The notes under the pieces are model-generated. The model saw only the letters and a program-made list of their open reading frames with translations. It was not told where the DNA came from and did no database searches. This document shows positions 9,976 to 51,415 of a stretch of 59,121 bases of DNA, piece after piece. How positions within the stretch are numbered: the stretch's first letter is position 1; the number at the start of each line of letters is the position of its first letter. Made by a program: the position numbers and the translations under genes. Source of the stretch: Euryarchaeota archaeon UBA346 (GTDB taxonomy: Archaea; Thermoplasmatota; E2; DHVEG-1); NCBI GenBank assembly GCA_002496355.1, contig DAJP01000050.1, positions 1,810 to 60,930 of the forward strand, in the 5' to 3' direction.

Positions 9976-10044
9976 GGTGTCCTCCGATTGAAATCAAGAA
10001 ACAATTTCCCTCTATATAGCAGTATTTCATACTTGCGAAAAGCG

Positions 10045-10878
10045 CTATTCTTCCAAATCGATGTGGTAGGTATTTTTTGGGTTTTCTACATGAATCACAT
10101 GTGCATGTTTTTCCGATAAAAGGTTTTCCTGCAGAAGATTTTTTGTCAGTTTCGGGACTGTTCTTGGAGCAAGGACCGCACCCGGTCGTCGTAAATCGTC
10201 TATGTAATCAGTCTCCATTAAAAATCGAGTTCCTTTCTGCAATGCAGCAACGATATTTTTTCGCGAGGAAAGCACTGAGGGCATCAGACCAAAATTCTCC
10301 TCAGGTGTGATAAGGGGTGGGGCGAAGTGTTTAACGATTCTTTCGGGGTTTAAACCAACTTTTCTGCCCATTTCAACAAATTCTTCGCACAGCTTTGGTG
10401 TCGTACTTTCTGTGTGCAACACGACCGGTACTCCAGCATCTTTTGCTTGTGCCATACCATAGGCCAACAAATCGTTTGAATCCTGTATGATTTGTTGATC
10501 GACAGGAAAATGTGGTCGTCCTATCTCACCAATAGCGATGCAGAGATGTTCCCTGCAGAGATTTGCTGCCTCATCCATTCCTTTTCTCATAATCGACAGA
10601 GCGGTCTGACGTCCGAATCTCTCTTGAAGCGGAAGAAGGTCCACCGGATAGGGGCCCACGACGACAAACACACCGATATCAAGAGTAGATCGAATCTCTT
10701 CTGCCATGTGGATCGTCTCTTGATAGCAGGTCTGATAGCTTTTTTCTTTCAAGACGGTCTCAGGCATGGGATACTGACAGAGGATGAAATGGGTACCACC
10801 TGCGGCTTTGAACTCTTTGACTGCCTCAAGAAATCTCCCGTCCCGTCGGAGATGAAGATGATTATCGAAACAGATCAT
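10045..10878 (-). CDS. TatD-related metal-dependent hydrolase (TIM-barrel amidohydrolase fold)
   Basis: N-terminal metal motif MICFDNHLHLRRDG plus a later HTES motif. Length of 277 aa is typical of archaeal TatD-like proteins. Confidence 0.65.
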   Translation of the reverse strand: MICFDNHLHLRRDGRFLEAVKEFKAAGGTHFILCQYPMPETVLKEKSYQTCYQETIHMAEEIRSTLDIGVFVVVGPYPVDLLPLQERFGRQTALSIMRKGMDEAANLCREHLCIAIGEIGRPHFPVDQQIIQDSNDLLAYGMAQAKDAGVPVVLHTESTTPKLCEEFVEMGRKVGLNPERIVKHFAPPLITPEENFGLMPSVLSSRKNIVAALQKGTRFLMETDYIDDLRRPGAVLAPRTVPKLTKNLLQENLLSEKHAHVIHVENPKNTYHIDLEE

Positions 10879-10943
10879 AGTCTCAGGTCCTATAAAAGAG
10901 AATAAAAAAGAAAGATATAAAGAGGTGGAGTGCGCGATATCAC

Positions 10944-11495
10944 CTATGTTTCCAGCTCAGCATCATTATGCGTGTTTTTCTTCCCAGCCACGATATCTAG
11001 GACGTCCTGCGCAAGGATCCAACCAAGATACCCCATGAAAAACGTGAAGAACCCCATGATGCTGTAGATGATTATGTTCTTTAATGGTTCGGTCCCGTCT
11101 TGAACCATGATGACAACTGTGCCAATGGCCAAGTAAACCAAAATGAGCAGCAGAATCCAGCGTAATGCGTTCATCGTACCATGAAAACTCAGAATAGGTT
11201 TAATGGTAAGTGCTTTTTTTTCTGCTGATTTTTTCACGTTTTTTCCTGGTGTCCTAGCCACTTTTTCGACAGTACATTGAAAAGTCGATGAAGCGAACTG
11301 TTTTACTTTTGCCTCATGCTTCTCTTGTTTCTGTATCGATTTATTCAGACGATATCGTTTATGGAACGGTGCTAGTGGAAGCACACGCAATGGTACTTTT
11401 CGTGTTTTAAGATTTCGCGAGAGACTTTTATTACTAATTTTTCTTATTGACACCGTTCTTCCTCCTAGTGAAGAATATTTTTTGAGTGATCCCAA
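10944..11495 (-). CDS. Hypothetical membrane protein (basic N-terminal half, two C-terminal TM helices)
   Basis: Long ORF with a K/R-rich N-terminus and hydrophobic segments WILLLILVYLAIGTVVIMV and IIIYSIMGFFTFFMGYLGWIL. No recognisable family. Confidence 0.45.
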   Translation of the reverse strand: MGSLKKYSSLGGRTVSIRKISNKSLSRNLKTRKVPLRVLPLAPFHKRYRLNKSIQKQEKHEAKVKQFASSTFQCTVEKVARTPGKNVKKSAEKKALTIKPILSFHGTMNALRWILLLILVYLAIGTVVIMVQDGTEPLKNIIIYSIMGFFTFFMGYLGWILAQDVLDIVAGKKNTHNDAELET

Positions 11496-38024: not shown

Positions 38025-39062
38025 TTGATATCCCCCTTTGACCTAAATGGGGTAGGGCCTATGAAGGAATTAGACATCACCACATTGCGACACGGAACCG
38101 ACCTTGTAAAAAGAGGTTTTTCAAAAATGCAAAAAGGCGGGGTCATCATGGATGTCACCACCGTAGAACAAGCAAAAATCGCAGAGAAAAGTGGTGCCGT
38201 TGCAGTGATGGCTCTCGAACGAGTTCCTGCTGATATCCGTGCCCATGGTGGCGTCGCACGAATGGCAGATCCCACCATCATAAAGGAGATTCTTAACACC
38301 GTCAGCATCCCGGTCATGGCCAAAGCACGTATCGGCCATTTCGTCGAAGCACAAGCCCTCGAGGCACTCGGCGTCGATATGATTGATGAATCAGAAGTGC
38401 TTACTCCAGCAGATCCGTTTTACCATATCGATAAACGTTGTTTCACCATCCCGTTCGTCTGCGGTTGCCGCAACCTCGGCGAGGCGACACGACGCATCTG
38501 GGAAGGAGCAGCAATGATACGAACTAAAGGAGAAGCAGGGACTGGAAATATCATTGAGGCTGTTCGACATCAGCGCATGGTAACACGCATGATTAGCACT
38601 CTTAAAACAATGCCCACCGTAAAAATACAAAAAGTAGCTGATGCGTATTGTCAAAGTTATATTACCTCATATAAAACATTGACTGATCAAAACGTTGATG
38701 ATAAAACCATTGTGTTCAGCTCATCAACCTATGGGGTCTTGAAAAAGGAAGTCTATGACATCTTAAAAGAAATCAAGCAACTGCAGCGACTCCCTGTCGT
38801 CAATTTCGCGGCAGGCGGAGTAGCAACCCCTGCAGATGCAGCACTCATGATGCAGATTGGAAGCGATGGAGTCTTCGTTGGATCGGGTATCTTCAAATCA
38901 AAGAACCCCGAGAAAAGAGCAAAAGCTATCGTAGAGGCGGTCGCTCATTTCGATGAACCAGAGACGATTGCTGACGTCAGTAAAAACCTTGGGGATGCCA
39001 TGCTGGGAATCGAAATTAGCTCGATACCAAAAGATCAACTTCTACAGGAACGAGGCTGGTAG
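38025..39062 (+). CDS. pdxS: Pyridoxal 5'-phosphate synthase lyase subunit PdxS
   Basis: [55 protein letters not shown] and [19 protein letters not shown]. The likely start is the ATG at 38061 (MKELDITTL...). An insertion of about 40 aa lies after the [10 protein letters not shown] block. Confidence 0.92.
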
Positions 39063-39064
39063 AA

Positions 39065-39655
39065 ATAGTCACCATAGGGGTCTTATCACTTCAAGGAGCG
39101 GTATCTGAGCATCTCACCTCCATGAACCGTGTTTTTCAAGAAGATAAAAAAAAAGGGAAAGCTATCCTAGTGCGTCAATCAAAAGATATTGATTCCTGTG
39201 ATGCATTGATCATCCCCGGGGGAGAAAGCACCACTATCTCCCGTATTTTGGTCAACTCCGGGATGTATGATGTGATCCGCGAACGGATGAACAACCAGGA
39301 CATCGCCCTGATGGGAACCTGCGCGGGATGCGTCCTACTTGCCAAGGAACTCACCGATACAAAGGCGGATGTCAAACTCCTAGAAGCAATCGACATGCTG
39401 GTGGAGCGCAATGCTTTTGGTAGGCAAAAAGAATCATTTGAACAATCAGTCCAGATAAAAGGATTGACCAACTCCTATCATGCCGTGTTTATCCGAGCGC
39501 CGATTATAACAAAAACATGGGGGGATTGTGAGATACTTTCAAAAGCTGGAAAAGAAATAGTCATGGCCAGGCAGAAAAGCTACCTGGCGCTATCGTTTCA
39601 TCCTGAATTGACTGATGACCTCAGGATTCATCGATTTTTTTTAGAGATGCTATAG
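39065..39655 (+). CDS. pdxT: Pyridoxal 5'-phosphate synthase glutaminase subunit PdxT (non-canonical start)
   Basis: The ORF track starts at the ATG at 39122, but the frame is open upstream and encodes IVTIGVLSLQGAVSEHLTS. This aligns with the PdxT N-terminus (B. subtilis MLTIGVLGLQGAVREH as I recall it). The only candidate starts are ATA at 39065 and CTG at 39056. Catalytic GTCAGC and FHPE are present. Confidence 0.85.
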   Translation: MVTIGVLSLQGAVSEHLTSMNRVFQEDKKKGKAILVRQSKDIDSCDALIIPGGESTTISRILVNSGMYDVIRERMNNQDIALMGTCAGCVLLAKELTDTKADVKLLEAIDMLVERNAFGRQKESFEQSVQIKGLTNSYHAVFIRAPIITKTWGDCEILSKAGKEIVMARQKSYLALSFHPELTDDLRIHRFFLEML

Positions 39656-50082: not shown

Positions 50083-51415
50083 CAGCGACTGCGGATTGTT
50101 TCATCATCCGTTTCAGAGGTTTACTGAGATGTCGACGGGCGCAGATAGGGACTTCATAGAAACCCGGTGTGATCGAACGTTTTTTTTCCTGCAGGACTGG
50201 CTCTGAACTACTCGTCCCACAATTTCTACATTTGTAGCCTTGATTGGTCCCTTTTGATTTCATATGTTTGCCGCAAGTCGGACACACTGGATTTTCTACC
50301 TTTATGGTCAATGGCACGAGTTGTTTGACATTGATTTTTTCAAGATTGATAGTGAGCGGATGCTCACGGACGCCTCCATAGGCTTCTACAATGTCTCCCT
50401 CGGAAAGCTTTCGAATACTCTTTCGGAATCCTTTTGTTGGTTCATATGCAGCACAATCGATTATCCCGGTTCTATCCTGGATCCTGAAGAGGACATGACC
50501 GCCTTGAATCGTGAACGGAGGTTCAACAACGGTTCCCTGGACGATGACGGATTCATATGGTTTAATCTGATCGATGGATTTTCTCTGCAGATGATCATCG
50601 GTCCCTTGATTCGTCACAAACACCAGCCAACTCTCAATCGGCTCAGATTTCACCTGTTCTGATGCCATCACCAGCTCGTCTGGACTATCCCCTCGTATCC
50701 CATAGAGGATCGGGCAGGGTGACGCTGGGACGATACGATTATGATGATTCTCAATATCATAGTTATCAAACGTGTTTGGGTATTTCGCATCCATGTGTTG
50801 GACAGAACGTGCATCAACATGTCGCTTCGTACCCCATCGTTGTCGCGGCCGATACGTGATCAACTCATAGGTCCAATCCCCGGGTTCCCAGCAGATCGCC
50901 GCGGTCGCCCCAATCAAGCCGCGCTTGTTTTTGTATCCTTCATAGACCGCGCGATGTTTGTGTAGAAGGTTGATGACCTCATCAAGATTTACGACCGTTG
51001 TCACCACTTTCCAATAAAAATCAAGTGGTGGCTTTTCTTGAAGAAGAACATACCCTGGATTTGTGTTCTCATCATCAACCCGGGCTTGTGTTTCAACGGT
51101 CTCCTTCACAATCCTAGCAAGATTCTCCTGCTGACTTTCTGAAAGCTCCAATGACCGATCAGGGGAACAGGATATCTCTTGACCATCAATCATTCCGATT
51201 TTCTGTCTTTTGTTCCCACGGGTTTTCCCAACCTGAAGACACAATGCTCCATTCCCCCGGGTCTTCCAAGGGACATTGGGGTTCAAACGAACAAGCCGTG
51301 GATAACCGATGATCGCATAGTCATCCATGATCTTCTCAATGATAGTCCGTGCTACATACGTGGTGCACCCACCATTCACTGAGTCTGTGTCGTCAATACC
51401 TATCCAGATGAATAT
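50057..51415 (-). CDS. tiaS: tRNA(Ile2) 2-agmatinylcytidine synthetase TiaS (non-canonical start)
   Basis: The ORF track starts at the GTG at 51379. The frame is open for 12 more codons back to an in-frame TGA and encodes IFIWIGIDDTDS, the conserved TiaS N-terminal motif. That stretch contains only ATA/ATC/ATA/ATT codons and no ATG/GTG/TTG. The C-terminal zinc ribbon CPTCGKHMKSKGTNQGYKCRNCG is typical of TiaS. Confidence 0.8.
   Translation of the reverse strand: MFIWIGIDDTDSVNGGCTTYVARTIIEKIMDDYAIIGYPRLVRLNPNVPWKTRGNGALCLQVGKTRGNKRQKIGMIDGQEISCSPDRSLELSESQQENLARIVKETVETQARVDDENTNPGYVLLQEKPPLDFYWKVVTTVVNLDEVINLLHKHRAVYEGYKNKRGLIGATAAICWEPGDWTYELITYRPRQRWGTKRHVDARSVQHMDAKYPNTFDNYDIENHHNRIVPASPCPILYGIRGDSPDELVMASEQVKSEPIESWLVFVTNQGTDDHLQRKSIDQIKPYESVIVQGTVVEPPFTIQGGHVLFRIQDRTGIIDCAAYEPTKGFRKSIRKLSEGDIVEAYGGVREHPLTINLEKINVKQLVPLTIKVENPVCPTCGKHMKSKGTNQGYKCRNCGTSSSEPVLQEKKRSITPGFYEVPICARRHLSKPLKRMMKQSAVAAIGTSDTP

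Follow-up and report, generated by a model that had tools for sequence, protein, structure and literature searches.

A probable near-cognate start codon for pdxT beside the pdxS stop in an uncultured member of the Thermoplasmatota

The stretch of DNA analyzed here (the window, 59,121 nucleotides) comes from the euryarchaeon UBA346 and corresponds to positions 1810-60930 of contig C89 in a 1.66-Mb metagenome-assembled genome that is 80%-complete (G000). It carries pdxS and, directly downstream on the same strand, pdxT; their products, PdxS and PdxT, form one complex. The subject of this analysis is the junction between the two genes, where the N-terminus of PdxT is encoded ahead of any canonical start codon. 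The features of the junction are the following, all on the plus strand.

38061-39062, plus strand: pdxS, encoding a subunit of pyridoxal 5'-phosphate (PLP) synthase (Pfam SOR_SNZ, E = 2.6e-96), with an ATG start and the stop TAG at 39060-39062
39017-39019, plus strand: TAG, the nearest in-frame stop 5' of pdxT; the list of open reading frames (ORFs) gives the ORF as 39020-39655
39052-39055, plus strand: GAGG, a Shine-Dalgarno (SD)-like core within the final codons of pdxS, 9 nt ahead of the ATA at 39065 and 0 nt ahead of the CTG at 39056
39056-39058, plus strand: CTG, putative site of the ancestral pdxT start and rival candidate, overlapping the pdxS stop as CTGGTAG
39062-39064, plus strand: the triplet before the ATA (GAA here), hypervariable by per-site base counts
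39065-39067, plus strand: ATA, the favored candidate start of pdxT, 2 nt past the pdxS stop
39065-39655, plus strand: pdxT coding sequence in its favored version, 196 aa (199 aa if read from CTG 39056), with the stop TAG at 39653-39655
39122-39124, plus strand: ATG, the first canonical start in the pdxT frame and the start chosen by Prodigal-type callers, giving a shortened product of 177 aa

The 3' end of pdxS reads ...GAA CGA GGC TGG TAG, for a protein C-terminus of ...QERGW. The gene pdxT lies in the -1 frame of pdxS, where the codons are CTG (39056) GTA GAA ATA (39065) GTC ACC ATA GGG GTC TTA TCA CTT; from this CTT the frame continues with CAA GGA GCG GTA TCT GAG CAT and ends at the stop at 39653-39655. 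Because of the in-frame TAG at 39017-39019, the pdxT frame is open only from 39020. The initial annotation of this DNA had the frame open back to a TAA at 38981, which is indeed in frame but lies farther 5'. The misplaced stop leaves its main point unchanged: no ATG, GTG, or TTG occurs in the pdxT frame between the stop at 39017 and the ATG at 39122, as both the sequence and the ORF list confirm. Its positions for the pdxS stop, its codons from GAA ATA GTC onward, and its distance of 9 nt between GAGG and ATA 39065 likewise agree with the sequence.

The product of this frame is readily recognized as PdxT. It matches PF01174 (Pfam SNO) with an E value of 3.7e-58 over profile positions 1-185 of 188, and it scores 206 bits with the PdxT equivalog TIGR03800, for which the cut-off is 105.6, over profile positions 2-184 of 184. 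The catalytic motifs MGTCAGCVLL (with the Cys in GTCAG) and SFHPELT (with HPE) are present and align with the PdxT chains 2ywd, 2iss, and 1q7r. In the translation from 39056, position 1 of SNO falls on residue 9 and position 2 of TIGR03800 on residue 7; the profiles thus begin at TIGVL/GVL, 39071-39080, inside the stretch that lacks a start, and the solved PdxT structures align from there. The conserved PdxT N-terminus TIGVLSLQGAVSEH, from 39071, therefore lies 5' of ATG 39122. A start at this ATG would drop strand β1 and the LQGAVSEH motif, both present in the profiles and solved structures, and the stretch missing from the resulting product includes the residues TIGVLSLQGAVSEHLTS. Judged from its sequence, pdxT is a functional PLP-synthase glutaminase gene that has lost its canonical start. 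As no ATG, GTG, or TTG precedes the essential N-terminus, translation should begin at a weak start codon next to the stop of pdxS, with ATA the likeliest and CTG the alternative.

The junction was compared among 20 genomes of the genus and 16 additional, distinct contigs from metagenomes, together 36 distinct in-genus sequences with 65-90% protein identity to the window. The frame was open in 36/36, and an ATG at the junction was absent in 35/36. From 39071 on, nearly all variation fell on third codon positions, with an entropy of 1-1.8 bits versus ~0 at positions 1 and 2, so that 39071-39121 shows the 3-periodic substitution pattern of translated sequence. Between G000 and its congener G018, the differences in the stretch before the ATG were distributed over the three codon positions as 3/1/15. 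The 19-22 codons preceding ATG 39122 contained neither stops nor indels in the 36 sequences, down to 65% protein identity. This confinement of variation to third positions indicates that the first 19-22 codons are translated and under purifying selection. Since the N-terminus is selected at the protein level in 36 independent assemblies, the arrangement is neither a sequencing error nor a pseudogene; a G-to-A error, which the initial annotation had raised as another explanation, is ruled out for pdxT, given that the 20 congeners and 16 contigs all keep the arrangement.

A second kind of constraint, acting on nucleotides, was found at 39050-39070. Here GAA, CGA, and GAGG are invariant, the GAGG at 39052-39055 being kept in 36/36 together with the 4-fold degenerate A at 39053 (in CGA) that creates it, and GTC keeps its final C in 35/36; past 39070, normal third-base variation returns. 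At 39065, 30 of the 36 sequences have ATA and 6 have ATC, none has ATT, and Ile is invariant. The preceding base, 39064, is A in 34/36. Position 39063, a second codon position in the pdxT frame, nevertheless has an entropy of 1.74 bits, and the triplet gives E, G, V, A, T, R, or K; the variation pattern of 39062-39064 is not of the coding type. At 39056 the codon is CTG in 31 sequences, TTG in 4, and ATG in one, G007, which is the most divergent member of the genus, the only one with ATG, and lacks the conserved ATA-GTC; at 0.68 bits, the C at 39056 varies rather little for a 4-fold site. The ATG at 39122 is conserved in 36/36. We take the constrained block 39050-39070 to be the putative footprint of a start codon and its SD. 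No conserved RNA structure was found at the junction (alifold -6.5 kcal/mol; minimum free energy -23.2 versus -21.9 +/- 3.7 for shuffled sequences), so the constraint is not explained by structure.

On balance we lean toward AUA 39065 as the codon at which pdxT translation starts. It is a one-base variant of AUG, it is conserved as ATH (ATA, ATC, or ATT) in 36/36, and it has an SD at a working distance: the 3' end of the 16S rRNA, ...GGATCACCTCCT, confirms the anti-SD sequence, and among 537 confident canonical starts of G000 the spacing of GAGG peaks at 7-10 nt before the start, a range that includes the 9 nt between GAGG and ATA. ATA makes up only ~15% of the Ile codons in G000 and dominates only 2/31 conserved Ile columns of pdxS and pdxT. 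In the clade without the ATG the Ile at 39065 never varies, whereas the nearest outgroups encode Thr or Lys, and other G000 genes that lack a canonical start likewise have ATA, ATC, or ATT at good spacing from an SD, kept among congeners. NCBI nr contains the exact ATA-start protein, an entry that stems from automated annotation and not from experiment. Folding of the single sequence predicts GAGG and ATA to be unpaired and CTG to be paired, a weak indication, as shuffled sequence folds comparably well. If ATA is used, the predicted N-terminus is (M)VTIGVLSLQGAVSEHLTSMNR, with VTIGVL... beginning after the Met; if CTG is used, it is (M)VEIVTIGVL.... Near-cognate initiation at AUA, or at CTG 39056, had been proposed in the initial annotation and fits these observations, as no canonical start yields the conserved N-terminus. 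The preference for ATA over CTG, and hence the codon in use, is what we infer from the pattern of conservation and spacing.

Mechanistically, AUA 39065 would be read as Met by the initiator tRNA, with the 30S subunit placed on it through pairing of GAGG (39052-39055), 9 nt upstream, with the 16S 3' end. Ribosomes that end pdxS translation at UAG 39060-39062, 2 nt away, would probably assist. The outcome would be translational coupling of two subunits of one complex, to which reinitiation would contribute a share that we infer. In evolutionary terms, an ancestral ATG overlapping the pdxS stop (ATGGTAA) would have decayed to CTG in the genus. Co-directional genes at a distance of -8 to +10 nt have been treated as predictive of termination-reinitiation, and such pairs are enriched for heteromeric complexes (Huber et al. 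2023, PMC10666635). The co-directional pair pdxS-pdxT has a distance of -7 nt with the CTG or +2 nt with the ATA, both of which are within this range, and its translational coupling is plausible by analogy. Like the coupled overlapping or abutting pairs described previously (PMC6728339, PMC10666635), it lies on one strand, encodes subunits of one complex, has a distance within the window of coupling, and has outgroup relatives with ATGGTAA. It differs in that the pdxT restart codon is non-canonical, whereas the published experiments used native canonical starts.

The arrangement in relatives outside the genus weighs against AUA. In 8 outgroup genomes, drawn from the same family and order, pdxS ends in GGA TGG TAA, and the pdxT ATG lies within this sequence (ATGGTAA, a 7-nt overlap), giving a PdxT that begins M-V-K-(x-x-x-)I-G-V. 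The initiator ATG of the nearest outgroups is thus homologous to CTG 39056 and not to ATA 39065, at whose position they encode Thr or Lys. The claim that the ATA sits exactly at the Met position of the family accordingly stands with respect to the distant PdxT of Bacillus subtilis (2nv0), whose Met1 aligns with the ATA residue (Met1 of Methanocaldococcus jannaschii lies one residue further on), and fails with respect to the nearest outgroups. Several further observations point the same way. A canonical TTG occupies 39056 in four congeners, CTG is the apparent start of a radical SAM gene in G000 and of three genes in G023 (same family, another genus), and a near-cognate codon stands exactly at the old ATG position in a further three genes (FlaJ-like, tiaS, and that of a geranylgeranyl reductase, GGR), which by analogy favors CTG for pdxT. 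The second ATA-dominated Ile column, T168 of pdxT, shows that such columns are unusual, not unique, and synonymous constraint in early codons would also be expected 3' of a CTG start.

In another genus of the same family (g4), genome G024 has pdxS and pdxT in one frame (G024:C9:64597-66378; ...GGC TGG TAG TTG ACG ACC...), and the TTG start of pdxT directly abuts the pdxS TAG.

Besides initiation at AUA, we considered that pdxT starts at CUG 39056, a decayed ancestral start reached by reinitiation 4 nt upstream of the pdxS UAG (7-nt overlap CTGGTAG), in which case the ATA encodes Ile4; we regard this as the less probable course but a serious one. It draws on the homology of the position to the ATG of the 8 outgroups and on the TTG in four and ATG in one congener, on the replacement by CTG of the GTG, TTG, or ATG of relatives in the radical SAM gene of G000 and likewise in G023 genes for SMC and a PyrD-like protein, on an ABC-permease gene of G023 in which AGGAGG is followed after 9 nt by CTG, and on the retention of the old ATG position by near-cognate codons in the FlaJ-like gene, tiaS, and GGR. 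The -7 overlap is also inside the range taken as predictive of reinitiation (PMC10666635), and the C at 39056 is fairly conserved. This last point carries no weight, because Gly columns dominated by GGC are not rare (4/35) and the conserved C may reflect inertia. CTG, like ATA, is one base away from ATG, but the GAGG abuts it at 0 nt, leaving it without SD support, whereas the other near-cognate starts in G000 mostly have a well-spaced SD. Moreover, what would be the third codon of the CUG-initiated product (39062-39064) is variable at base 2 and fixed at base 3, while the outgroups that start at the upstream ATG hold K or R at this triplet; Ile4 is invariant solely in the clade that lacks the ATG; and no public source annotates a CTG-start protein. 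Use of both codons by reinitiating ribosomes, giving a major and a minor PdxT proteoform three N-terminal residues apart, would accommodate the location of both codons within a few nt of the stop, the partial conservation of each, and the apparent usability of both codon types in the family. We think it improbable: the explanation is less parsimonious, and no clear sequence conservation is seen in the three additional residues.

Translation solely from ATG 39122, or a decaying pseudogene, with the upstream similarity a relic, would agree with the conservation of this ATG in 36/36 and with the 177-aa product in most public gene calls. It is nonetheless very unlikely in view of the strong purifying selection on the 19-22 upstream codons in 36 sequences, which encode strand β1 and LQGAVSEH as matched by Pfam, TIGRFAM, and solved structures, and the alignment shows the Met at this ATG as an internal residue like any other. 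We give still less credence to recoding, whether by a -1 frameshift producing a PdxS-PdxT fusion, by reassignment of AUA to Met, or by A-to-I editing of AUA to AUI. In favor of the frameshift, the pdxT frame is -1 relative to pdxS and has 13 open codons ahead of the pdxS stop, but no slippery heptamer of the form X XXY YYZ occurs in 39020-39062, and in genome G012 the open overlap spans only 2 codons, with a TGA just before ACG AGG CTG. Reassignment is contradicted by the alternation of ATA with ATC or ATT at the 31 conserved Ile columns of pdxS and pdxT and by the presence of tiaS, whose product lets tRNA-Ile2 read AUA as Ile; the initial annotation had also argued against it, and correctly so. 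Editing would leave the ATC, ATT, and CTG cases unexplained. As to tRNAs, the 80%-complete G000 yielded only two with CAU and none with UAU as the anticodon, which is uninformative with respect to a special initiator tRNA. Loss or obvious change of the initiation factor aIF1 was rejected, aIF1 being present in 40/41 genomes with no striking lineage-specific change.

For a genome-wide comparison, we called 1335 likely genes in G000, aligned their stop-to-stop ORFs with 1.5 Mb of the congener G018, and scored the stretches before the called starts by the codon-position likelihood of the G000-G018 differences. Two simpler procedures were discarded. Codon-usage scoring of the pre-start stretches in G000 alone was too weak for short stretches (the score for pdxT was only 3.1), and plain protein alignment of G000 with G018 returned 215 genes "extended" by >=5 codons, as non-coding DNA 5' of the genes varies too little among congeners; adding the codon-position likelihood test isolated a handful of real cases. 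Among ~850 assessable genes in G000, at least 9 lack a canonical start and have ATA, ATC, ATT, or CTG instead, mostly behind a good SD, which corresponds to roughly 1-3% of the assessable genes. This fits the possibly systematic near-cognate use in the lineage that the initial annotation had raised. A tally of the codons aligned to the first canonical start of the other genome gave no clear excess (6 cases of ATG to ATA versus 3 of ATG to ACG), and suffers from noise, since genes often truly start elsewhere than at their first canonical codon. The cases other than pdxT are listed below with their candidate starts.

G000 contig C25, 575-1477, minus strand: gene for a FlaJ/TadC-like membrane protein, with no canonical start for 78 codons and an ATA overlapping the upstream stop (ATAA)
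G000 contig C40, 7343-8188, minus strand: gene for a coiled-coil protein, GGAGGGG followed after 5 nt by ATA
G000 contig C113, 19084-19779, minus strand: ribB, GGTGA followed after 6 nt by ATT
Window 51407-51409, minus strand: tiaS, GGTGA followed after 6 nt by ATC, with ATC also in G018 and G023
Window 24486-24488, minus strand: gene for GGR, AGGGGA followed after 6 nt by ATA, aligned to the ATG of a G018 homologue
G000 contig C5: second GGR-like gene, with an ATC start
G000 contig C119, ~10017-11279, minus strand: replication initiator gene orc1/cdc6, GAGGAGG followed after 8 nt by ATT, conserved in G018
G000 contig C7, 6613-7746, plus strand: radical SAM gene, GGTGA followed after 6 nt by CTG

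Several of these candidate starts have a traceable history. The ATA of the FlaJ/TadC-like gene is invariant in 21 congeners and in G022 and G024, which belong to two other genera, and G023 and G030 have ATG (ATGA) there; one G-to-A change thus appears to have turned ATG TGA into ATA TAA. For the coiled-coil protein, ATA is found in all 17 congeners with a match and ATT in G024. In ribB, GGTGA is followed after 4-6 nt by ATT or ATA, and the start in the outgroups is an ATG lying 4-5 codons farther 5'; as the outgroup genes have ATG-GGT-GAA at that place, a formerly coding GGTGA now seems to serve as the SD. The first canonical codons of orc1/cdc6 differ between the congeners, with TTG in G000 where G018 has CTG. 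The CTG of the radical SAM gene corresponds to GTG in the outgroups and to TTG or ATG in other congeners, and the genomes with CTG carry ATG, TTG, ATA, or AAG two codons upstream, which suggests two competing starts, much as in pdxT. The tiaS start resembles that of pdxT in having an SD, then a near-cognate codon at the position of the ATG of relatives, and a protein shortened by gene callers; in pdxT, by difference, the old ATG position and the codon with the best SD spacing are different codons.

When G000 was compared with G023 over the first 800 kb of the latter (259 gene pairs), G023 proved to have a set of start-less genes of its own, with examples at the minus-strand ORFs 617068-617998 and 382918-384316 (reverse-complement offsets). 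A gene for a secreted protein has ATA where G000 has ATG, and CTG replaces the GTG of G000 in the SMC and PyrD-like genes, in addition to the CTG of the ABC permease. The genes tiaS and orc1 also belong to the G023 set. This comparison indicates that the trait is family-wide and that the affected genes turn over between genera. In the MetF-like gene of G023, AGG stands where G000 has GTG, and neither ATH nor CTG is available.

We consider it possible, though somewhat short of probable, that near-cognate initiation at AUA, AUC, AUU, or CUG, behind an SD or beside an upstream stop, is a regular and evolutionarily stable feature of the family, involving ~1-3% of its genes. Such a feature would include orc1/cdc6, tiaS, pdxT, ribB, and smc, from which ATG may have been lost repeatedly and in which weak codons may have been retained for long periods. 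If so, the stringency of start-codon selection would be lower than in model organisms, perhaps setting low expression, and N-terminal truncation would be systematic in public annotations. Sequence comparison places pdxT itself as a real, well-conserved non-canonical start in a housekeeping gene, of a kind already known, and as a member of a percent-level class of such genes in the family. The pdxS-pdxT junction also offers a compact natural test of archaeal restart on AUA or CUG, and it can show whether an SD embedded in the last codons of the upstream gene picks the start.

Near-cognate bacterial starts (ATT, ATC, ATA, and CTG) are included in NCBI table 11, with the AUU of Escherichia coli infC and pcnB as examples (for near-cognate initiation, Hecht et al. 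2017 as cited in PMC10666635). Like these two, pdxT is a conserved housekeeping gene that lacks ATG, GTG, and TTG, has a one-base variant of AUG behind an SD, keeps this codon among relatives, and is missed in its correct form by ab initio gene finders. The differences are that archaea have aIF1 and aIF2 instead of IF3, that no autoregulatory role is known for pdxT, and that pdxT has two competing near-cognate codons 9 nt apart. E. coli has two or three such genes, compared with at least 9 in the 1.66-Mb G000, whose rate may be above that of other prokaryotes. A literature search found no paper on near-cognate starts in Thermoplasmatota.

The consequences for annotation are already visible at pdxT. 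The 177-aa form is found in JGI/IMG, Logan, and the NCBI submitter records, and the ATA start only in the NCBI evidence-based call, so that most public PdxT calls lose the first 19-22 residues, comprising a core β-strand and the PdxS-contact motif. Given the 9 or more such genes in G000 and the different set in the sister genus, gene finders restricted to ATG, GTG, and TTG truncate or miss a percent-level share of the proteins. The inferred near-cognate-start versions of the other six genes are absent from NCBI nr; near-cognate-start versions are present there for PdxT (ATA), RibB (ATT), and the C5 protein (ATC).

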